Source: Candidatus Parcubacteria bacterium (lineage in GTDB: Bacteria > Patescibacteriota > Minisyncoccia > Phycocordibacterales > UBA2100). From it: a stretch of 64,000 nucleotides of DNA. Below the pieces are notes generated by a model. It did no database searches. It saw only the letters and a list, made by a program, of their open reading frames with translations, and was not told the origin of the DNA. Position numbers and translations under genes: made by a program. Below, piece by piece: positions 4,432 through 59,180 of this stretch; the stretch's first letter is position 1, and each line of letters begins with the position of its first letter. The stretch lies in assembly GCA_041168925.1 (NCBI GenBank), contig JBEEJY010000010.1:12430-76429 (forward strand), read 5' to 3'.

Positions 4432-7400
4432 ATGCACGGCTACGACCACAAGAAGATAGAGACCAAATGGCAAAAAGCGTGGGCGAAAAAGGGCCTCTAT
4501 AAAACATCCGATAAAGTAAAAGGGAAGGACAACTTTTACCTGTTGGTCGAATTCCCGTATCCATCCGGCAATCTCCACGTCGGGCACTGGTACGCCTTTT
4601 CCGTGCCCGACATTCTCGCACGCATGATGCGAATGCAGGGTAGGAACGTGCTCTATCCGATCGGTTTCGATGCGTTCGGCCTTCCGGCGGAAAATGCCGC
4701 GATCAAAAACAGGGTGAATCCGCGAAAGTGGACGCTGGGCAACATCGAATTCATGAAAAAGCAGATACGTTCGATGGGAACCTCATTCGACTGGTCGCGA
4801 GAAATCCTCACCTGCGATCCGGCATATTACAAGTGGACGCAATGGCTCTTCCTTCAATTTTTCAAGAGAGGTCTGGCGTATCAGAAAGAGACTCCCGCCA
4901 ATTGGTGCCCGAAAGACAAGACGGTGCTCGCCAACGAACAAGTCGTGGATGGCAAGTGCGAGCGTTGCGGCACGCAGGTAATCCAGAAAGAAATGCCGCA
5001 GTGGAATCTCAAGATAACCGACTACGCCGATCGGCTCATCAATGATCTCGACGCGCTTGACTGGCCGGAGCAGATAAAAGAATCGCAGCGCAACTGGATC
5101 GGCCGTTCCGAAGGATACGAAATCGATTTTCCTCTTGTTTTCGACGATGGCAAAAAGTACAAGTATGTTCTCTTGCACGGCTATACGGGACACGCGTCGG
5201 ATGCGCGGTGGCAGTGGATACGGCGCGAATTGGAAGCGCTGGGGCACGAGGTCATCATTCCCGAACTCCCGAATACCGATGATCCGAGCGAGGAAGAACA
5301 GGTCGAAGTGGCTTTACACGCTACAGAGTACGATGAACGGACGGTTCTCTTTGGCCACAGCCTCGGCGCGACGGTCGCGATGAAGGTTGTGGAAAAGCTT
5401 ACAGCTCCGATATCACGCCTCGTGCTAGCCGGAGCCGTGGTCAATCCGCGATTCAAAGACAAGAAACGGCCGTTCGAGAAGAAGTTCAGTTGGAGATTCG
5501 ACCCCGAAGCAATAAAAAAGAACGCGAAAAGCATTACGGTACTCCACGACCCGCGGGATTACGCGATCACCGAGAAACAAAGACAACTCATTGAAAACAT
5601 GCTCAATCTGAAGGCACGGCTATGCAGCACGACCGAGCCGCACTTTACGGGCGACAGGGAGCCGGATCTCCTCATGTGGCTGCGTCCGACCATCCGTGTT
5701 TTCACCACTCGCCCCGACACGCTCTATGGCGGCACTTTTCTCGTTCTCGCGCCCGAACATCCTTGGATCAAAGCGGCCCTGCAAAATGACGGACATCGTA
5801 AGTCCGTCATTTCAAACGAGGCAGAGATTCAACGCTACGTCGAGAATGCAGCGAAAAAGACAGAGCGCGAACGACAGGAGAGCAAGGAAAAGACGGGAGT
5901 TGAGCTGATGGGTGTGAAAGCCATCAATCCAACGACCGGAGCCGAAATACCGCTGTGGGTGGCCGACTACGCTCTGATGGGATTCGGCACTGGTGCGTTA
6001 TTTGGCGATGCGCACGACGCCCGCGACGTCGCCTTTGCGAAAAAGTACGGCATTCCGTTGAGGGAAACAATAGAGCCTTTGTTCATTCAGGAAACAGGGC
6101 TAGACAAAATTCGATCAGATGAGCCATTTACGGAGCGCAATTCCATTCACGCGTTCGTTAAGCATTGGTCGGACGAAAAGTACATGGCGGTGCACTATGT
6201 GCCGAGTGATATCAACGAGTGTGTGTCTGGTGGGATCGAAGAAGGTGAAGATGCGGTAACGGCGGCACAACGTGAGATACGTGAAGAGACAGGTTACAGT
6301 AAAGCGCGCTTCGTCAGGAAGTTGGGCAATCGAGTTCATGCGAAGTATTACAGCGTTGAACGCAAGAAGAACATGTTCGTGCATTTTACCCCACTCCTAT
6401 TCCAACTTGAAGATGATACTCAAGAGGAGATATCGGCGAGTGAAAAGGCGCGCCATGAGGTAAGTTGGCTTTCGAAGGAAGAGGTAGGGCGATTCTTCAA
6501 CCGGGACGATATCCGTCTGGGCTGGAGTCGCGTCGAGAATGATATTCCGTATGAGGGAAAGGGGATACTGTTCGACTCTGGAGAGTTCAGCGGGCTCACG
6601 AGCGATGAGGCGATGCCGAAGATCGGCGAGAAATTCGGACGACTGGTCAAACACTATCGCCTGCGCGATTGGATAGTATCGCGCCAACGCTATTGGGGAG
6701 TGCCCATACCGATCATTCATTGCGCAACGTGCGGCCCTGTTGCCGTGCCCGACAAAGACCTGCCCGTCAAATTACCGGAAGTCAGAGATTATCTGCCGGA
6801 CGGGAAGGGGAAATCGCCGCTCGCGAAGGTAATCAAATTCGTTCAGGTAAAATGTCCGCGCTGCAAGAGTTCGGCGCAGCGAGAAACCGACACGCTTGAT
6901 ACGTTCGTGGACTCGTCGTGGTATTTCTTGCGCTACACAGATCCAAAGAATAAAAAGAAATTCGCCGATGCAAATAAGATGGATCATTGGATGCCGGTCG
7001 ATCTCTACTCCGGCGGCGCGGAGCATACGACCATGCACGTGCTCTATTCCCGTTTCTGGCAGAAGGCGATGTTCGACCTCGGGCTCGTGAAAGACAAAGA
7101 GCCGTACGTGCGGCGCATGAATCGCTCCATCATTCTCGGGCCGGACGGCCAAAAAATGAGCAAATCGCACGGCAATGTCATCGATCCCGACGAAGTGGTC
7201 GCGCGGCTCGGGGCGGACACGGTGCGCATGTATCTCGCCTTCATCGGTCCGTACAGTGAGGTCTCCAGCTTCCCGTGGAATCCCGACGGAGTGGTCGGCG
7301 TCCGTCGCTTTCTCGAGCGGGTGTGGAATGCCGGCCAGAAATTGGCGGTGCAAGAGAAGCGAGTGGATGCGCTGCGACACATATTGCACAAGACCGTGAA

Positions 7401-12332: not shown

Positions 12333-12695
12333 ATGCCAAATATACAGGAAATATGGCTGGAAATCAAGGGTGTGGGGCGTGAGGCCGTCGCACAGTGGGG
12401 GCTTATCGCTATCGTGATACTGCTCGGCATCAGCTCCTTCGAACTCGGCCGGCTTTCAGCTCTGGAGTCCGCAACGCCGGTGCTTTCCATCACGTCTACG
12501 CATCTCGCGCCGCACCCCCGTCAGCTTGTCCAAGGAGGCTTGTACGTGGCCTCGCGTTCCGGGAGCGTCTATTACTATCCGTGGTGTACGGGGGCGACGA
12601 AGATTCTTCCGGCGAATCAGGTCTGGTTTGCCGATGAGAGCGCCGCGGTGCGCGCAGGCTATAGAGCGGCGAAGAACTGCAAAGGAATGGAGTAA
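12333..12695 (+). CDS. small membrane-anchored protein with a conserved C-terminal Y..PWC...GYRAAKNC motif (resembles Ada-type metal-binding/zinc-ribbon motifs but has only 2 Cys)
   Basis: One N-terminal TM helix; C-terminal VYYYPWCTGATKILPANQVWFADESAAVRAGYRAAKNC. Start at MPNIQEI assumed. Confidence 0.45.
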   Translation: MPNIQEIWLEIKGVGREAVAQWGLIAIVILLGISSFELGRLSALESATPVLSITSTHLAPHPRQLVQGGLYVASRSGSVYYYPWCTGATKILPANQVWFADESAAVRAGYRAAKNCKGME

Positions 12696-12742
12696 GGATT
12701 GTGTCGTTTGGGCATACTCTCTCGCGGAGATATACTGTTCGT

Positions 12743-27667: not shown

Positions 27668-27768
27668 ATTCGGTGATTATAGCAAGTAAATTGCGTCTTC
27701 ACTATAAACAATCCAGCGTCCCGCAGGTCAAGGCATGCTAGCCATAAGCGGCAGACTCCGACAAAGGA

Positions 27769-49977: not shown

Positions 49978-51249
49978 ATGAAGTACAACCTCCATACGCT
50001 CAAAAACGGTCTGCGCATCGTGCTCGCGCCGATGCCGGGCAATAAGACAGCGACAGTCATCGTGATGTCGGGCACCGGCTCGCGCTATGAAGACGAGAAG
50101 GAGAATGGGCTCGCGCACTTCTTGGAGCACATGTTTTTCAAAGGCACCAAGAAACGGCCAAGCGCCAAGGCGATAAGCGAGGAGCTGGATGCCGTCGGTG
50201 CCGTTTACAACGCCTTCACCGCCAAGGAGCGCACCGCCTACTACGCCAAAGTCTCCGCCCGTTACCTCGATACCGCGCTCGACGTCATCTCCGATATCTT
50301 CGTCAATTCCCTCCTGCCGGAAAAAGAGATAACGAAAGAGCGCGGTGCCATCATCCAGGAGATAGATATGTATGAGGACATGCCGATGCGCACGGTTGAT
50401 AATGTATTCGACGAAATGCTCTTCGGCAAAGAGCATCCGCTCGGCCGCACCATCCTCGGGCCCAAAGAGAACATCCGCACCTTCACACGAAAAGATTTCG
50501 CCGCCTACCTCAAGCGCAACTACACGTCGCTCAATACAGTGGTCTGCATCGCCGGTTCTTTCGACGAAAAAAAGGTACTGGCGAAAATAACGAAAGATTT
50601 TGGCGGCTTGAAGCATGGCAACCCGCCCGATTTCATCCGCTTCGCTCCCGAGCAGGACAAGCCGCGGGTCATGATAAAAGAAAAGCAAACGGACCAGACG
50701 CACTTCATGCTCGGCGTCCCGGCCTTCCCCTACCTCCACAAAGACGAATTCGCCCTCGCGGTGCTCTCGGCCATCCTCGGCTCTGGCATGTCGAGCCGCC
50801 TTTTTCTCGAAGTGCGCGAGAAGCGCGGGCTCGCATACTCCGTCCACTCATGGGTGGAGCGCTATCCTGATACCGGAACTTTCGTCGTCCAGGCAGGTGT
50901 CGAGCATGCGAAGCTGGAGCAGACGGTGAAGACTATCCTTGGTGAGTTCAAGAAAATTAAGAGGACGAAAGTATCGGCGGCAGAGCTCGCGAAGGCGAAG
51001 CAATTCATCAAAGGCACGATGACGCTCTCGCTCGAGACGAGTGATGAGATAGCGCAGCACGCAGCGAGCGCTATGATAAATATCGGCCGTGTACGCCCGC
51101 TCGAAGAAATCATCAAAGGCATCGACGGCGTCACCGCCGCCGAAGTCCAACGCGTCGCCCGCGACCTTCTCCAGACCAACCGCCTCAACCTCGCCATCAT
51201 CGGCCCGCATATCTCGAAAGCCAGTCTTGTTTCTCTACTGAAAGTCTAA
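49978..51249 (+). CDS. M16-family zinc peptidase (insulinase-like)
   Basis: Inverted zincin motif HFLEHMFFKGT plus a downstream E; two-lobed M16 architecture. Confidence 0.85.
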   Translation: MKYNLHTLKNGLRIVLAPMPGNKTATVIVMSGTGSRYEDEKENGLAHFLEHMFFKGTKKRPSAKAISEELDAVGAVYNAFTAKERTAYYAKVSARYLDTALDVISDIFVNSLLPEKEITKERGAIIQEIDMYEDMPMRTVDNVFDEMLFGKEHPLGRTILGPKENIRTFTRKDFAAYLKRNYTSLNTVVCIAGSFDEKKVLAKITKDFGGLKHGNPPDFIRFAPEQDKPRVMIKEKQTDQTHFMLGVPAFPYLHKDEFALAVLSAILGSGMSSRLFLEVREKRGLAYSVHSWVERYPDTGTFVVQAGVEHAKLEQTVKTILGEFKKIKRTKVSAAELAKAKQFIKGTMTLSLETSDEIAQHAASAMINIGRVRPLEEIIKGIDGVTAAEVQRVARDLLQTNRLNLAIIGPHISKASLVSLLKV

Positions 51250-51313: not shown

Positions 51314-51357
51314 GAGGTACACTAAATGTATGCTATAGCATATATTTAGTGTACCTC
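51314..51357. repeat. 44-bp AT-rich near-perfect palindrome GAGGTACACTAAATGTATGCTATAGCATATATTTAGTGTACCTC (TACACT-N8-GCTATAGC-N8-AGTGTA core)
   Basis: Lies between the convergent M16 peptidase and ung genes. Shares the core architecture with two elements flanking the PaaX-like gene. Confidence 0.6.
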
Positions 51358-51410: not shown

Positions 51411-52091
51411 CTACAACCAGTCAATCGGCTCTTTCTCGTACTTTTTTAAATATTCGTTGGCGCGGCTGAACGGCTTGGAGCCGAAAAAGCCGCTGAAGGC
51501 GGAAAAGGGCGAGGGGTGCGCGGATTCGATGACGCAATGCTTCTCGCGGTCGATGTACGCGCCTTTCTGCTTGGCGTAGTTGCCCCATAAGATGAAGACG
51601 AGATTTCCTTTTTCTTCCGACAACGCGCGGATGACGGCGTCGGTAAATTTTTCCCATCCCTTCCCCTGATGCGAGCCCGCGGTTCGAGCCTTCACTGTAA
51701 GCGTTGCATTCAATAAGAGCACTCCCTGTTTCGCCCAGCGTTCTAAATCCCCCGTCCGATGAACTAATTTCTGACCGAGATCGCTCTCGATCTCTTTAAA
51801 AATATTCTGGAGCGAGGGCGGCAACGCGACACCTTCGCCGACAGCAAAGCAAAGCCCATTGGCCTGTCCCGGCCCGTGGTACGGGTCTTGCCCCAAGATG
51901 ACGACCTCGACTTTGTCGAACGGGGTAAGCTCGAAGGCGCGAAAGATATTTTTCGGCGCAGGATACACGATCGCGTGCCGGTATTCCTCTTTGACGAATT
52001 TCCGGAGTTCGCTGAAATATTCCTGCCCGAATTCATCCTGCAGCACCTTCTTCCACGACGATTCTATCTTGACGTCCGTCTCGCCACTCAT
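51411..52091 (-). CDS. ung: uracil-DNA glycosylase, family 1
   Basis: GQDPYHGPGQANGLCF (water-activating loop) and C-terminal HPSPFS motifs. Confidence 0.9.
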   Translation of the reverse strand: MSGETDVKIESSWKKVLQDEFGQEYFSELRKFVKEEYRHAIVYPAPKNIFRAFELTPFDKVEVVILGQDPYHGPGQANGLCFAVGEGVALPPSLQNIFKEIESDLGQKLVHRTGDLERWAKQGVLLLNATLTVKARTAGSHQGKGWEKFTDAVIRALSEEKGNLVFILWGNYAKQKGAYIDREKHCVIESAHPSPFSAFSGFFGSKPFSRANEYLKKYEKEPIDWL

Positions 52092-55240: not shown

Positions 55241-56230
55241 TTATTTTTGGTGAGACTTGATCGCTCTCATGATTAGAAACTTCGATTCGTAGTGATACGG
55301 AGGATTCGCTTTCGAATATGATTCTCGCGGAATTCTGCTCCGCCAAAATCGCGTTGCATACCCCCGGAAAAGGCGGTTCAGCATTCTCTCTGCGGATTGG
55401 TTTGTATATGCTTTTTCGCCGGGAATGACGTAGGGTTTGCCATCGAATCGGTCCCGCTTGATGTCCGTGGCGAAATCGATGAGTGCTGTTCCATTAGGCT
55501 TGAGCACTCTGTCTATCTCGGAGGCAATGTGTTTGAGTGTGCGCAGAGGAAAGATGTGGAGAGTCCCCACGCAGAAGACGCCGTCCATAGAATTTGCCAC
55601 TATTGGAAATCGTCGAGCGACATCGAAGACTTTCGTTGTGAACTTTCTCTTGTACTTTCGCGATATATTGCGCAGCGACTTCTCAAGGGCGTTCGGATCG
55701 ATATCCGAAGCAATGAGTGAATTAACCGTCCTCAGAAGCAACGCATTGCACCTCCCGTCTCCAGCCGTTAGATGGAGCCACGCACCCTTCACTCGCAGCG
55801 TGTTAATAACCTCCACGGTCTTCGGATCCTCTAAACCCCAGATGGATCGTCTTCCTGTTTTGAGATAATCGATGTGCTCGATATGGTGGTGCAGTCTTTT
55901 CTTATGACGAGAATCTTCGGGTGTTGTATGTGATACTTCATCACTAATCTTGTTTAATCCACTGGCCGCGAAAGCGCCTTCTGATTTCAGCATCGCTTGT
56001 TTTCTGAGCGTGCCGCCTCTGTTGTAGCTCCCAAGCGAACCATCGGAGCGGATGACACGATGGCAAGGGATGCTCTCATCGTAATTGGTGAGCATGATGG
56101 CACCGACGGCGCGCGCGGCCTTCGGATTGCCCGCTCTTGCGGCGACTTCTTTGTAGGTCATTGACTTCCCTTTCGGGATTTTTCTCACCACATTTCGCAC
56201 TTTGTCTGCAAACGTCTTCATGCTCGTCAT
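55241..56230 (-). CDS. fusion protein: N-terminal MGMT-type DNA-binding domain (PCHRV active-site motif) + C-terminal class I SAM-dependent methyltransferase
   Basis: N-terminal 90 aa match the O6-alkylguanine-DNA alkyltransferase C-domain (TYKEVAARAGNPKAARAVG...IPCHRVI). The C-terminal region has the Rossmann motif I LHLTAGDGRCN and the post-II motif LKPNGTALIDF. Confidence 0.6.
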   Translation of the reverse strand: MTSMKTFADKVRNVVRKIPKGKSMTYKEVAARAGNPKAARAVGAIMLTNYDESIPCHRVIRSDGSLGSYNRGGTLRKQAMLKSEGAFAASGLNKISDEVSHTTPEDSRHKKRLHHHIEHIDYLKTGRRSIWGLEDPKTVEVINTLRVKGAWLHLTAGDGRCNALLLRTVNSLIASDIDPNALEKSLRNISRKYKRKFTTKVFDVARRFPIVANSMDGVFCVGTLHIFPLRTLKHIASEIDRVLKPNGTALIDFATDIKRDRFDGKPYVIPGEKAYTNQSAERMLNRLFRGYATRFWRSRIPRESYSKANPPYHYESKFLIMRAIKSHQK

Positions 56231-56266
56231 TCTAACATAATCGCATGCGTATGCGTGAATTCGATG

Positions 56267-56302
56267 TATACTATATCTTTGCTATAGCATAGTTTTAGTA
56301 TA
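56267..56302. repeat. 36-bp AT-rich palindromic element TATACT-N8-GCTATAGC-N8-AGTATA overlapping the start codon of the PaaX-like gene (divergent promoter region)
   Basis: Part of an about 45-bp direct repeat with the element at 56888..56923. Confidence 0.6.
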
Positions 56303-56871
56303 TGGGAGAAATTGAACGGAGGGGAAAATTAAGGAGGCGAAGGAGGAACATTAAGAATGCCCTGCTGACGGCGATTCAACTTGCGGCAGTTGTCGGTGTC
56401 GCCGTCGCTGCGCCGAATCTGCCGCAAGCCCTTTATAAGACAGGTCTACTGAAGATACGCGGGGATGGCGCGGTTATAAGTCGCTCACGAAGAAACTTGT
56501 TGAGGCGACGTCTACTAAAAGAAGAAAAGGGATTTCTCGTATTGACACGCGCTGGGCAAAGAGAACTGCTTCGGATTGAGCTCGGTGAACGGCGATTGAA
56601 ATCTTTTCGATGGGATGGACGATGGCGTGTACTTATCTTTGATATCCCAGAATACAGAAAGAAAGACCGAGAGAAATTGCGTCGCACGCTCCGGAGCGTC
56701 GGATTCGAGCATTTACAGGACAGCGTCTGGATCTATCCTTATGACTGCGAAGATTTTGTGGCTCTTTTGAAGGCAGATTTCAAAATTGGGAAGGACATGC
56801 TGTATATGATTGTGGAGGAACTCGAGGGAGATTCGACGCTCCGGAAGCAATTCAACCTTCGAAACCGCTAG
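56302..56871 (+). CDS. PaaX-like transcriptional regulator (wHTH + PaaX_C/Cas2-like C-terminal domain)
   Basis: C-terminal WDGRWRVLIFDIPEYRKKDREKLRRTLRSVGFEHLQDSVWIYP matches the PaaX C-domain pattern; the N-terminal half is helix-rich. Flanked on both sides by the palindromic element. Confidence 0.5.
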   Translation: MGEIERRGKLRRRRRNIKNALLTAIQLAAVVGVAVAAPNLPQALYKTGLLKIRGDGAVISRSRRNLLRRRLLKEEKGFLVLTRAGQRELLRIELGERRLKSFRWDGRWRVLIFDIPEYRKKDREKLRRTLRSVGFEHLQDSVWIYPYDCEDFVALLKADFKIGKDMLYMIVEELEGDSTLRKQFNLRNR

Positions 56872-56887
56872 CAGTATCGATTCCGAT

Positions 56888-56923
56888 GTATACTGATTTC
56901 ATGCTATAGCATGGAGTTAGTAT
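56888..56923. repeat. 36-bp AT-rich palindromic element TATACT-N8-GCTATAGC-N8-AGTATA downstream of the PaaX-like gene (between convergent genes)
   Basis: Same architecture as the elements at 56267..56302 and 51314..51357. Confidence 0.6.
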
Positions 56924-56956
56924 ACTGGGCGAGTCGGAACCGATGCCGTGAGATGA

Positions 56957-57769
56957 TCAGATACCGAGGGTCCCGGTGGATTTTGGATCGTTTCTCTTTC
57001 CATGAGCGGAGTGGAGCTGCAGCTCCTTACCTGCCGTCTCGCGGTAACGGCAGTATTCGCACTCCTCTTTTTTATCCGGCACGGAGTCGCTTTTTAAGCA
57101 GTGCGCGAGCCGCTCTATCAGCGGCTCGATCCAGTCCGTGTCGCCTTTGTGGGAAATCACTCTGACGTCGAACTCGAGCTTGCCGTCGAACGAGGGCGCA
57201 TCGCTGTTTCCGTTGACGTAGACGAAATATGCGGTCGGCGAAACTTTTTCTCCGATGCCGCGCAAGAGCCATTGGTAGATCTCTACCTGTCGTTTGTATC
57301 CTTGCTGCCAGTATCCTTCGATCGTAACCTCCTCTTTTTTCGAGGTCGCTTTGTAGTCGACGACATGCAACTGACCATCGGGTGTTACCCACACGTCGTC
57401 GAGTCCGCCCCGGAAAATAAATCCGGTTTGGCGGTGATGAAATTGTACGCCGCGGCGAAACGCGTCGCGCCACTCATCCAGCCGATCGTCTTTGAGCGGT
57501 ATGGCATCGATCTTGTACGCTTTCATGAGCGGATGCGCCTCCCCTTTGGCGCGGTGAATGTCGAATTCCCGTTTTAAGAGTTCATCGACGGCGTTGTTGA
57601 GGGAAAACGCCGGAAAAGACGGCCGAGCGATCCCAAGTCGCACGTCGAGGTAAAAACACCTCGGACATTCGTGAAAAAGATCGATTTTCGAGCGGCTTAT
57701 GCGAAACGGCTCCGGCGAACTCGGATCGTAAAGGTTACGGGTCCGTTTGGCGTAGAGCTTGGGAGGCAT
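56957..57769 (-). CDS. Cas4-like/RecB-family PD-(D/E)xK nuclease with Cys cluster (DUF83-type), not CRISPR-associated here
   Basis: N-terminal Cys (HECPRCFY), the D-x-K motif in VVDYKATSKK, QxxxY (QVEIYQWLL), and a C-terminal C-x12-C-x2-C (CLKSDSVPDKKEECEYC). Confidence 0.6.
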   Translation of the reverse strand: MPPKLYAKRTRNLYDPSSPEPFRISRSKIDLFHECPRCFYLDVRLGIARPSFPAFSLNNAVDELLKREFDIHRAKGEAHPLMKAYKIDAIPLKDDRLDEWRDAFRRGVQFHHRQTGFIFRGGLDDVWVTPDGQLHVVDYKATSKKEEVTIEGYWQQGYKRQVEIYQWLLRGIGEKVSPTAYFVYVNGNSDAPSFDGKLEFDVRVISHKGDTDWIEPLIERLAHCLKSDSVPDKKEECEYCRYRETAGKELQLHSAHGKRNDPKSTGTLGI

Positions 57770-57789
57770 TCCGCGAGTATAGCACTCGC

Positions 57790-58296
57790 CTAACTCATCG
57801 CACCTGGTGCGGTGTCGTGATTTTCATGGTGTTCGGTAAACCAGTGTTTGAAACGATTCTCCAGGTACCACATGCCGGTAAACATGATCAGGGAGAGAAT
57901 GGTGGAAAATACCGCGACCGCGTACATCCCGAAGCCGGCGGCCATGCCGATGGCGCTCACGATCCATAAGCCCGCCGCGGTCGTGATGCCGTGCGGCACG
58001 TCGCCGCGAAAGATGATGACTCCCGCGCCGATGAAACCGATACCGGTCGCCACCCCTGCTGCAAGCTGAAGCGGCTGGATGTTGACGATCCCAAGGTATG
58101 CCGAATCGACATAGTTGGAAATGAGAATGAAAAGACATGCGGCGAGCGCGACGAGGCCGAAGGTGCGCGTGCCGGCCGCTTGTTTGGCGAGAATGGCGCG
58201 CTCGGTACCGATGCATGCGCCAAGGGCCATGGCAAGCAAGAGCTTGCCGAACATGACGACTGTCGGGTCGATAAATTCAGCCGGCGTAGGTTGCAT
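57790..58296 (-). CDS. mgtC: MgtC/SapB-family membrane protein
   Basis: Four to five TM helices with the MgtC signature (ALGACIGTERAILAKQAAGTRTFGLVAL). Confidence 0.75.
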   Translation of the reverse strand: MQPTPAEFIDPTVVMFGKLLLAMALGACIGTERAILAKQAAGTRTFGLVALAACLFILISNYVDSAYLGIVNIQPLQLAAGVATGIGFIGAGVIIFRGDVPHGITTAAGLWIVSAIGMAAGFGMYAVAVFSTILSLIMFTGMWYLENRFKHWFTEHHENHDTAPGAMS

Positions 58297-58313
58297 ATGA
58301 GTCGACTATACCA

Positions 58314-59180
58314 TCAAATACCGCACAACTGTTTGGCTTCATCGAGAACATGGGGAATTTTATCGGGGCGTATGCCGAATTCCTTGAGCATATGCGGGGT
58401 CGTGACGCTTTTGCACAGCACGATGCGCCGGTCGAGGAAACGATGCTTCTCGCCATCGGAAAGCGTCGTGAGACAGGTAAGCGGATGCACCTTCCCCGCT
58501 TCGATCATATGGAAGAGGCCGCGATCGTGCGGATAATCCCAGCCGAGCAACGTAAGCCCCGAACACTGCGCGTAGCGGATCGCATTCCGAGTAAAGCGAG
58601 TGTTGGTCGCCAGCCATCCTTCATCGATACGCATCGATGCTTGTGGCGCCGCGTGGAGATCTTCGTAGCGCGCGCACACGTAGAGCGCATCTTTGATGTC
58701 GGTTTTGCCGGACGCATCATTGTGAAATTTTGCTTCGATGCCGACGCGTTTGCCGCCGCGCTCCGCGACCACGTCCACCTCGTGCGGCGCGCATCTGCCC
58801 GTGAGTGCAACGCCGGTGCGCACGTGCCAGCCCTGGGCGCGCAGCACTTCGGCGAGAAATTGCTCAAAAGGAAATCCCGAGGGGCCCAATGCGAAAACGG
58901 CGCGCTTGATCGAGTAGCGCGCGGCGACGGGCGTGACGTCCTCGCGCCTCAGTATCTCGAAGGCGCGCCGGTATATATCTTCGGTGTACATTCCCGGACG
59001 AAGTTCGCGCATCATGTGCGCGAGAATCTTCGCGCGTGCCGTCGAGGAGGCACCCGCTAGCTCGAGCGAATGCATGAGCTTGCCGGGATCAAACGGCTCT
59101 TGCTCGCCGTCGGCTTTGGTAATGACAAACTCGCGGCTCTGTCGCGTCGATGGCTGCGGACGTGAGGCTATCGTTGTCAT
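58314..59180 (-). CDS. ATP-cone domain fused to an Mrr-like restriction endonuclease (PD-(D/E)xK) domain
   Basis: The N-terminal region (FVITKADGEQEPFDPGKLMHSLELAG...KILAHMMREL...DIYRRAFEILRR) matches the ATP-cone as in NrdR. The C-terminal HEVDVVAERGGKRVGIEAKF carries the D..E.K catalytic motif of Mrr_cat. Confidence 0.6.
   Translation of the reverse strand: MTTIASRPQPSTRQSREFVITKADGEQEPFDPGKLMHSLELAGASSTARAKILAHMMRELRPGMYTEDIYRRAFEILRREDVTPVAARYSIKRAVFALGPSGFPFEQFLAEVLRAQGWHVRTGVALTGRCAPHEVDVVAERGGKRVGIEAKFHNDASGKTDIKDALYVCARYEDLHAAPQASMRIDEGWLATNTRFTRNAIRYAQCSGLTLLGWDYPHDRGLFHMIEAGKVHPLTCLTTLSDGEKHRFLDRRIVLCKSVTTPHMLKEFGIRPDKIPHVLDEAKQLCGI

Follow-up and report, generated by a model that had tools for sequence, protein, structure and literature searches.

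A stand-alone palindrome between two convergent genes of a Patescibacteria genome, a candidate displaced binding site of a small PaaX-like protein

Described palindrome systems and the solo copy

It is known that PaaX, the regulator of the phenylacetate catabolon of E. coli and Pseudomonas, joins a winged helix to a Cas2-like middle domain (PF20803; 8A39, 3KFW), and that the E. coli protein has TGATTC-N27-GAATCA as its site and acts as a steric repressor of its own promoter (PMC9493321). A second described system, REP/REPIN-RAYT (TnpA_REP), consists of short extragenic palindromes, tens to hundreds per genome, and of a vertically inherited single-copy gene which is flanked by copies of them and codes for an HUH/Y1 transposase; compensatory changes on both sides of the REPIN hairpin were reported to be common (PMC3116915). 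Intrinsic (Rho-independent) terminators and the palindromic repeats that accompany Cas2 in CRISPR loci are two further objects of comparison. By protein homology and site geometry the palindrome examined here would be placed next to the PaaX operator, while by its genomic behaviour it resembles REP/REPIN-RAYT but lacks what defines that system, an HUH transposase and a high copy number. Gene regulation in Patescibacteria (CPR) is poorly characterised, and in the literature searched we found no description of this motif, of PaaX-like proteins in CPR or of Parcubacteria palindromes of this kind.

The window, that is the whole stretch of 64,000 nucleotides analysed, contains the solo (stand-alone) copy of the palindrome between two genes which are given for context only:

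49978-51249, + strand: M16 peptidase gene, left neighbour of the solo copy
51314-51357, no strand assigned: solo palindrome copy, core 51318-51353
51411-52091, - strand: uracil-DNA glycosylase gene (UDG superfamily; ung), right neighbour of the solo copy

The 44-bp sequence of the solo copy is GAGGTACACTAAATGTATGCTATAGCATATATTTAGTGTACCTC, with the core TACACT-AAATGTAT-GCTATAGC-ATATATTT-AGTGTA and the outward extension GAGG/CCTC. The first-pass annotation had described it as a near-perfect inverted repeat with two mismatches, placed between the convergent M16 peptidase and ung genes, and both statements proved correct: the sequence differs from its own reverse complement at positions 15 and 30 only, which make up a single G·T pair (G15·T30), and it is situated 64 nt past the M16 stop and 53 nt past the UDG stop. 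It had also rightly been counted as the third member of the element family of the 56.3- and 56.9-kb copies. The pattern TAYACT-N8-GCTATAGC-N8-AGTRTA has exactly three matches in the window (51318-51353, 56267-56302 and 56889-56924), even when three mismatches are allowed, and none of 100 dinucleotide-preserving shuffles contained a match. An HMM built from 85 copies in other genomes found the same three elements and no degenerate extras. A fourth GCTATAGC octamer, at 2091-2098, lies within a coding gene, is without flanking arms and is consistent with chance. Since the spacer with the solo palindrome is identical in two independent assemblies of the same strain (Logan SRR35181043 and JGI 3300047479), an assembly artefact is excluded. 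The window has no Rfam match and no tRNA gene according to the scans made for them.

We see about an even chance that the solo copy is a stand-alone cognate palindrome of mini-PaaX, a small PaaX-like protein encoded 5 kb away, i.e. a displaced predicted binding site with little or no conserved local function. The 51.3-kb copy would then be a displaced duplicate, arisen in this lineage by DNA copying and not by point mutation, and it would sit where insertions harm least, between two convergent gene ends. It would probably still be occupied by mini-PaaX but would control no conserved target, and its effect would at most be to dampen read-through as a hairpin or roadblock, or to provide a cryptic promoter that is kept repressed. 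Binding, repression, the leaderless start and mobility are all predictions from sequence.

The mini-PaaX cassette and its putative operator

The other two copies of the window bracket the mini-PaaX gene, and together with it they form a cassette with the following parts and neighbours:

55241-56230, - strand: Ogt DNA-binding domain and methyltransferase fusion gene, cassette neighbour
56263-56306, no strand assigned: upstream cassette copy, core 56267-56302, the last base of which is the A of the mini-PaaX ATG
56290-56295, + strand: TAGTTT, a -10-like TAnnnT hexamer within the upstream copy (right spacer), 6 nt upstream of the ATG; predicted promoter element
56302-56871, + strand: mini-PaaX gene, 189 aa, PF20803 match
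56885-56928, no strand assigned: downstream cassette copy, core 56889-56924
56957-57769, - strand: PD-(D/E)XK nuclease gene, on the far side of the operon that the cassette splits

The earlier proposal that the family is tied to one regulator-like protein was thus borne out, a PaaX_M gene lying between the 56.3- and 56.9-kb copies. Mini-PaaX consists of a basic N-terminal arm, a winged helix and a Cas2-like domain with an FDIPE motif, and it matches PF20803 (PaaX_M, Cas2-like domain) with E 2e-20; PaaX and Cas2 models of NCBIfam and PADLOC gave weak sub-threshold matches, those of PADLOC being to Cas2 only and confined to residues 107-147. At E ≤ 0.001 there are 1,744 homologues in the protein database searched, and among the 120 listed most are 188-195 aa long and few have informative annotations. 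The AlphaFold model (pLDDT 77) has N-terminal helices and a β-wing followed by a β-α-β-β-α-β domain. Its top PDB matches in Foldseek are Rv0674 (3KFW) and E. coli PaaX (8A39), followed by VapD and Cas2, and in a profile search of the PDB 3KFW was matched at E 0.0013. The model stops with the Cas2-like domain. The C-terminal ligand-binding domain of PaaX, through which an acyl-CoA effector releases that protein from its site, is thus absent, so no phenylacetyl-CoA-type effector is expected for mini-PaaX. The Asp at the Cas2 catalytic position (FDIPE) is invariant in 40 mini-PaaX homologues; Rv0674 does not keep the motif. To our knowledge E. coli PaaX is without it too. Mini-PaaX differs from PaaX also in having no paa genes nearby and in belonging to Patescibacteria. 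A Cas2-fold protein accompanied by ~36-bp palindromic repeats is reminiscent of CRISPR, but there is no array, there are no spacers and no cas1 among the neighbours, and genes separate the window copies, which lie at distances of 622 bp and 5 kb.

The upstream copy, with three T·T arm mismatches, occupies most of the 71 nt that separate the divergent ogt-methyltransferase and mini-PaaX genes. The core of the downstream copy begins 17 nt past the mini-PaaX stop and ends 32 nt from the convergent PD-(D/E)XK stop. This arrangement recurs in other genomes: in at least 13 loci, the window included, the ATG of mini-PaaX takes its A from the end of the upstream palindrome, and of 20 mini-PaaX genes in loci chosen by motif 16 are preceded by one copy and followed by another 0-100 nt past the stop (five or fewer mismatches allowed). 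Because these first loci had been chosen by motif, contigs were also fetched by protein, and in that sample all ten mini-PaaX genes (nine loci) were bracketed by palindromes of the same layout and of lineage-specific sequence, with the centres GCTATAGC, GCGGTCGC, GCGGCCGC, CCTATAGG and ACGGCCGT, the upstream and downstream copies of one gene matching each other. Two mini-PaaX paralogues on one contig (L168, 1531-2161 and 9957-10623) have distinct palindrome types, AGATATAAT..ACGGCCGT..ATTATATCT versus CTATATTGATGCGGTCG... Such lineage- and paralogue-specific bracketing has the look of a cognate protein-site pair.

Two ideas on the cassette palindromes were dropped. The downstream copy as the remnant of a tandem duplication that carried the gene's 5' end was seen only in L018 and weakly in the window, and the palindrome of L165, taken for a variant shorter by one helical turn, was on re-measurement 34 bp overall. 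In L030 (~6546-6636) an 11-nt tandem repeat (cgtaatctttt, ~5 units) is situated between the mini-PaaX stop and the downstream palindrome. A palindrome in L053 (7582-7772) precedes a stretch of ~60 nt similar to the beginning of the mini-PaaX gene, and a tRNA-His gene comes next; the arrangement looks like a truncated copy of the cassette, of which a full version is found elsewhere in the same MAG (L050).

The half-sites follow the profile GCTATAGC-(G/A)-T(76%)-A(72%)-nnn-T(74%)-T-AGTRT-A(+1)-T-G. A TAnnnT box lies at -12..-7 from the terminal A (T/A/T at -12/-11/-7) with the opposite arm at -35..-30, and it is present in 13 of 17 gene-facing halves versus 57 of 126 solo halves. The TAGTTT of the window is in the same register as the other leaderless-type promoters there, examples of which are found at 57770-57790, 58297-58315 and 27668-27690, with gagtgcTATACTcgcggaATG before the PD-(D/E)XK gene. 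Shine-Dalgarno-like motifs precede only four of 50 window ORFs (ORFs ≥150 aa) and TAnnnT peaks at -14..-12 from the start codons (15 of 56 window genes), which indicates that leaderless promoters are the norm here and that the genome appears to be largely leaderless. The upstream palindrome would accordingly span -35 to +1 of a leaderless promoter, with the TAnnnT box in the gene-facing spacer and the ATG at the edge. A mini-PaaX dimer on the two outer hexamers (TAYACT-N24-AGTRTA, 24 bp apart) would cover its own core promoter and would therefore shut off its own gene, like E. coli PaaX at Px.

Binding of mini-PaaX to the palindrome and repression of its own gene are predicted from the comparison with the PaaX operator, which also has 6-bp inverted repeats about three helical turns apart, the N24 found here being 3 bp shorter than the N27 of E. 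coli. In both systems one of the sites lies over the promoter of the regulator itself, an arrangement that implies autorepression. The 56.3-kb copy lies over a promoter in this way; the solo copy, between two stops and with no gene start, does not. The palindrome differs from the PaaX operator in its conserved 8-bp centre, its self-complementary spacers and the second site that always follows the gene. Mini-PaaX, its likely recognition site and a putative leaderless, autoregulated promoter can thus be read off together, and they offer a testable protein-DNA pair for organisms that are unculturable.

The outer hexamer of the solo copy is TACACT, while both cassette copies of the window have TATACT. 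It is the only such mixture in the sample, each of the other genomes being uniform at this C/T base, and the resident mini-PaaX may for this reason bind the solo copy poorly. In sequence the solo copy is closer to the cassette copy of L065 (32/36 identical) than to the cassette copies of its own genome (27-29/36). Alignment column 59 of mini-PaaX, just before the recognition helix, has H/K/Q/R in 16 TACACT genomes and D/E/N/S in four TATACT genomes; this residue may be a specificity determinant, though with only four TATACT-type proteins and the confounding effect of phylogeny it is a hint and not evidence.

Distribution, displacement and arm co-variation

The motif search called for in the first-pass annotation yielded further copies of the palindrome. 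One scan of species-representative genomes with a 20-position pattern returned 81 stretches, of which 79 are from Patescibacteria/Paceibacterota MAGs (Kaiser-, Taylor-, Niyogi-, Nomura-, Zambryskibacteria and others); the other two matches (Streptococcus and Shewanella) have spacers that are not self-complementary. There are 1-8 exact copies per genome, numbers which are lower bounds because the MAGs are incomplete. TAYACT-N24-AGTRTA is present in all 91 copies. The repeat unit is only the ~40-bp palindrome, (CA)TAYACT...AGTRTA(TG); a larger MITE around it was looked for and discarded, the flanks being unrelated between copies of one genome. Pairs spaced 600-700 bp recur, and at 60 loci tRNA genes were not systematically adjacent. 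When 148 flanking ORFs, called in foreign loci by a simple longest-ORF rule, were clustered by BLAST, the only recurrent neighbour family was the ~190-aa mini-PaaX (PF20803). Assemblers seem to break or fold at these palindromes: the whole 3154-nt contig L070 is a fold-back inverted duplication of the cassette, and one contig carries the same palindrome at both ends (listed as L048 10-45 and L058 6292-6327).

At the locus itself the solo copy is specific to the lineage. The palindrome is absent from 80 metagenomic loci with M16 homologues (44-82% identity, ~650 kb), and about ten related contigs with sequence downstream of M16, among them the three nearest relatives of the window, have no palindrome there. 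The backbone common to the relatives is M16(+) → ← ung ← (...) ← ogt ← PD-(D/E)XK, with empty M16/ung junctions in L097, L098 and L100 and empty M16/ogt junctions in L087 and L099. Among relatives only Kaiserbacteria nzgw465 (L062) has a palindrome after M16. In the M16 tree the window groups with L101, L082 and L083, which have none, and L062 is distant, so the post-M16 palindrome must have been either gained twice or lost many times.

The cassette shows the same instability. In the window the palindrome-mini-PaaX-palindrome unit (56263-56928) is inserted between ogt and PD-(D/E)XK of a conserved minus-strand operon, genes which are only 5-86 nt apart in eight relatives (L084, L086, L087, L095, L097, L099, L100 and L101). 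In two syntenic contigs (SLT_2, L31, RF-1, S2, EF-Ts ... GyrB) it follows SLT_2 in one case and gyrB in the other (L165, 9969-10610; L166, 9968-10611), and the empty site of L166 (702-860) holds a canonical terminator only, with no palindrome or excision scar. As a ~40-bp near-perfect palindrome cannot appear at a new site by point mutation, some copy-and-insert process probably operated. The earlier idea of a recombination site or derived element is supported indirectly, in that the solo copy and the cassette as a whole are both polymorphic for insertion; neither a recombinase nor a target-site signature was found. Another presence/absence polymorphism was observed in L076 (1758-2383), where a 171-aa gene and a palindrome separate two genes for which the distance in the window is only 5 nt (12695-12701). 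The ogt gene of the window is itself unusual: its single 329-aa ORF (55241-56230, - strand) joins an Ogt/MGMT DNA-binding domain (residues 7-85) to a SAM-dependent methyltransferase domain, and relatives have at this position only a stand-alone Ogt-domain protein of ~85 aa.

Palindrome spacers are genome-specific, and 48 of the 91 copies are perfect over 36 bp. Within copies the arms have 81 mismatches, against 128.9 ± 9.7 when arms are shuffled within genomes (none of 10,000 permutations was as low), and in several genomes more than one variant is present, each of them self-complementary throughout. Copies that flank the gene are often chimeras, the two arms of which recur as perfect solo palindromes (e.g. 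in MHRX and CAYGHQ); such flanking copies as a group have about two mismatches per copy as compared with 0.97 in solo copies (p=0.003). Palindromy also runs on into the copy-specific flanks, for 2.83 bp versus 1.05 ± 0.12. The arm mismatches of the 91 copies (21 G·T, 20 A·C, 71 other) show no RNA-type wobble bias, and a preference of the window copies for mismatches that are G·U-compatible on the + strand was dropped as a family property on the same count. These features fit a DNA-level hairpin or cruciform, be it a replication or recognition intermediate or the 'perfection' of quasi-palindromes by template switching, and not selection on an RNA stem. Two of them are a difficulty for the reading of the solo copy as a displaced mini-PaaX site: binding of a dimer alone explains neither the co-variation of arms within a copy nor the palindromy that extends into the flanks.

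A REPIN/RAYT-like system is one alternative. The palindromes would then be non-autonomous hairpin elements which mini-PaaX cuts and copies by means of its Cas2-like domain, the solo copy would be transposed offspring, and the cassette would move as well. In its favour are a single-copy gene flanked by its own palindromes, solo copies dispersed in extragenic space at non-conserved positions and polymorphic for presence, genome-specific variants with compensatory arm changes, solo copies more perfect than the gene-flanking ones, and a cassette that entered between PD-(D/E)XK and ogt and is differently placed in L165 and L166. Target-site duplications around the copies were not found, and HUH-type elements are alike in this, while the Asp at the Cas2 catalytic position is invariant in mini-PaaX but not kept in Rv0674. 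Nevertheless we judge such a system unlikely. The 1-8 exact copies per genome, three of them in the 64-kb window and none in the ~650 kb of related contigs, are very few compared with REPs, and within ±10 kb of nine cassettes there are no further copies. Mini-PaaX is not of any known transposase or recombinase family, Pfam, NCBIfam and PADLOC giving only PaaX_M and Cas2-like matches, and neither excision intermediates nor scars at empty sites came to light, the vacant position in L166 holding only a normal terminator. In structure, too, there is one continuous near-perfect palindrome and not two REPs with a spacer, no GTAG-type 5' tetranucleotide is present, and the upstream copy doubles as the promoter region of the gene. 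Perfect, outward-growing palindromes can moreover arise through template-switch correction of quasi-palindromes, for which no dedicated enzyme is required.

We accordingly hold to the displaced binding site. If so, the family would be a case of a long regulatory palindrome that escapes its gene and spreads as a low-copy repeat, by which the line between operator and mobile element is blurred. A bolder and rather doubtful proposal is that mini-PaaX is a domesticated, sequence-directed Cas2-fold nuclease which recognises the hairpin or cruciform of its own palindromes and copies them, occasionally with the whole cassette, to new intergenic sites, the 51.3-kb element being one such offspring. If true, a Cas2 fold would take the place of the HUH transposase in a REPIN/RAYT-like replicator, one that is conserved across a large part of the Candidate Phyla Radiation. 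A catalytic Cas2-like domain would mean an independent origin of a REP-like replicator and a free-living relative of Cas2 with palindromic repeats outside CRISPR.

Neighbours and possible local role of the solo copy

If solo copies had a common target, it should be visible among their neighbours. The spacers of the 67 copies that are not beside a mini-PaaX gene comprise 17 convergent, 23 tandem and 10 divergent ones, and the background of spacers ≥40 nt comprises 83, 218 and 85, respectively. In a Pfam census the 35 genes whose 5' end faces a solo copy belong to 34 families, each seen once, including MurA-type, aminoacyl-tRNA synthetase, ThyA, RmuC, L19, trigger factor and Ddl. A conserved regulon was ruled out on these grounds, as the 5'-facing Pfam families are singletons and the clustering of the 148 neighbours gives the mini-PaaX cluster only. 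Solo copies as promoters of leaderless ORFs were also rejected, the ORFs that begin with an ATG at the edge of the palindrome in other genomes being of random length (median ~9 codons). Neighbours without a theme and random edge ORFs therefore indicate neither a conserved regulon nor a general promoter role. The view of the solo copy as a second operator of the same regulator is upheld in part: proteins of this family very probably bind the copy, but it has no gene start or conserved target, and solo copies elsewhere lie beside unrelated housekeeping genes in all orientations.

A more local variant is that the solo copy is a bidirectional promoter controlled by mini-PaaX, from which antisense or small transcripts would run into ung and M16 at their 3' ends, so that DNA-repair output would be linked to the regulator. 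Both of its spacers do contain a TAnnnT hexamer in the family register (TATATT and TACATT), exactly that of a gene-facing half, with the opposite arm at -35..-30. All three window copies touch genes of DNA-repair type (ung, the ogt fusion and PD-(D/E)XK), and L062 carries its copy between M16 and ogt. But the edges of the solo copy offer no ORF start (ACC, not ATG), edge ORFs elsewhere are as short and random as described above, divergent spacers are not enriched for solo copies, and the functions of the neighbours have no theme. The repair genes are a pre-existing operon, found also in palindrome-free relatives, that received the cassette; a DNA-repair regulon was ruled out for this reason. 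Taken together, such a promoter is improbable, and the displaced binding site is preferred to it.

The first-pass annotation had further suggested a bidirectional terminator derived from the same element, and for this there is poor support. Like an intrinsic terminator, the solo copy forms a stable stem-loop right after convergent stop codons, with an RNA hairpin of -40 kcal/mol on the + strand (z -7.8) and -33.6 kcal/mol on the - strand. It is the only strong structure of the M16/ung spacer, which otherwise has no convincing terminator, the best being a weak stem (-4.4 kcal/mol) before a T7 run. Across the family convergent spacers are somewhat commoner among solo copies (17/50 versus 83/386 in the background), and the stem often extends into the flanks. 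Against a U-tract-less terminator, or an RNA-stabilising hairpin for M16 and ung, speaks first the structure of the element: the 20-bp stem is A+T-rich, not G+C-rich, and of conserved sequence, no T run follows on either side (the next bases are TCTCTTGC on the + and GCCGGAGC on the - strand), the solo copy is not among the terminators called by the scan, and the arm mismatches have no G·U bias. Its placement speaks against it as well, 10 of 50 solo copies being between divergent starts and one copy 5' of every mini-PaaX gene, while M16, with ung or ogt where adjacent, ends without the element in all related contigs except L062. Canonical terminators have the same frequency next to palindromes (19/79, with the palindrome itself making up three) as in other places (62/341), and often lie directly beside the palindromes; as there is no depletion, a replacement of canonical terminators by palindromes was ruled out.

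A terminator or stabilising hairpin as the function of the solo copy is therefore as improbable as the promoter, if not slightly more so. As the spacer has no other convincing terminator, the -40 kcal/mol hairpin of a displaced mini-PaaX site could make an incidental contribution, and the solo palindrome may in this sense have a local role in stopping transcription. For genome annotation it follows that these palindromes should not be labelled as terminators, and that a regulon should not be deduced from them. Related contigs contain other families of long perfect palindromes as well (L096 2525-2564 and L103 2927-2976; L096 198-235 and L103 890-923). One of type GGCAGTCTGACTGCTA.. is present in L096 and L103, and one of type TATCATCGT..(CCGGCCGG/GCGGCCGC)..ACGATGATA is situated just upstream of M16.
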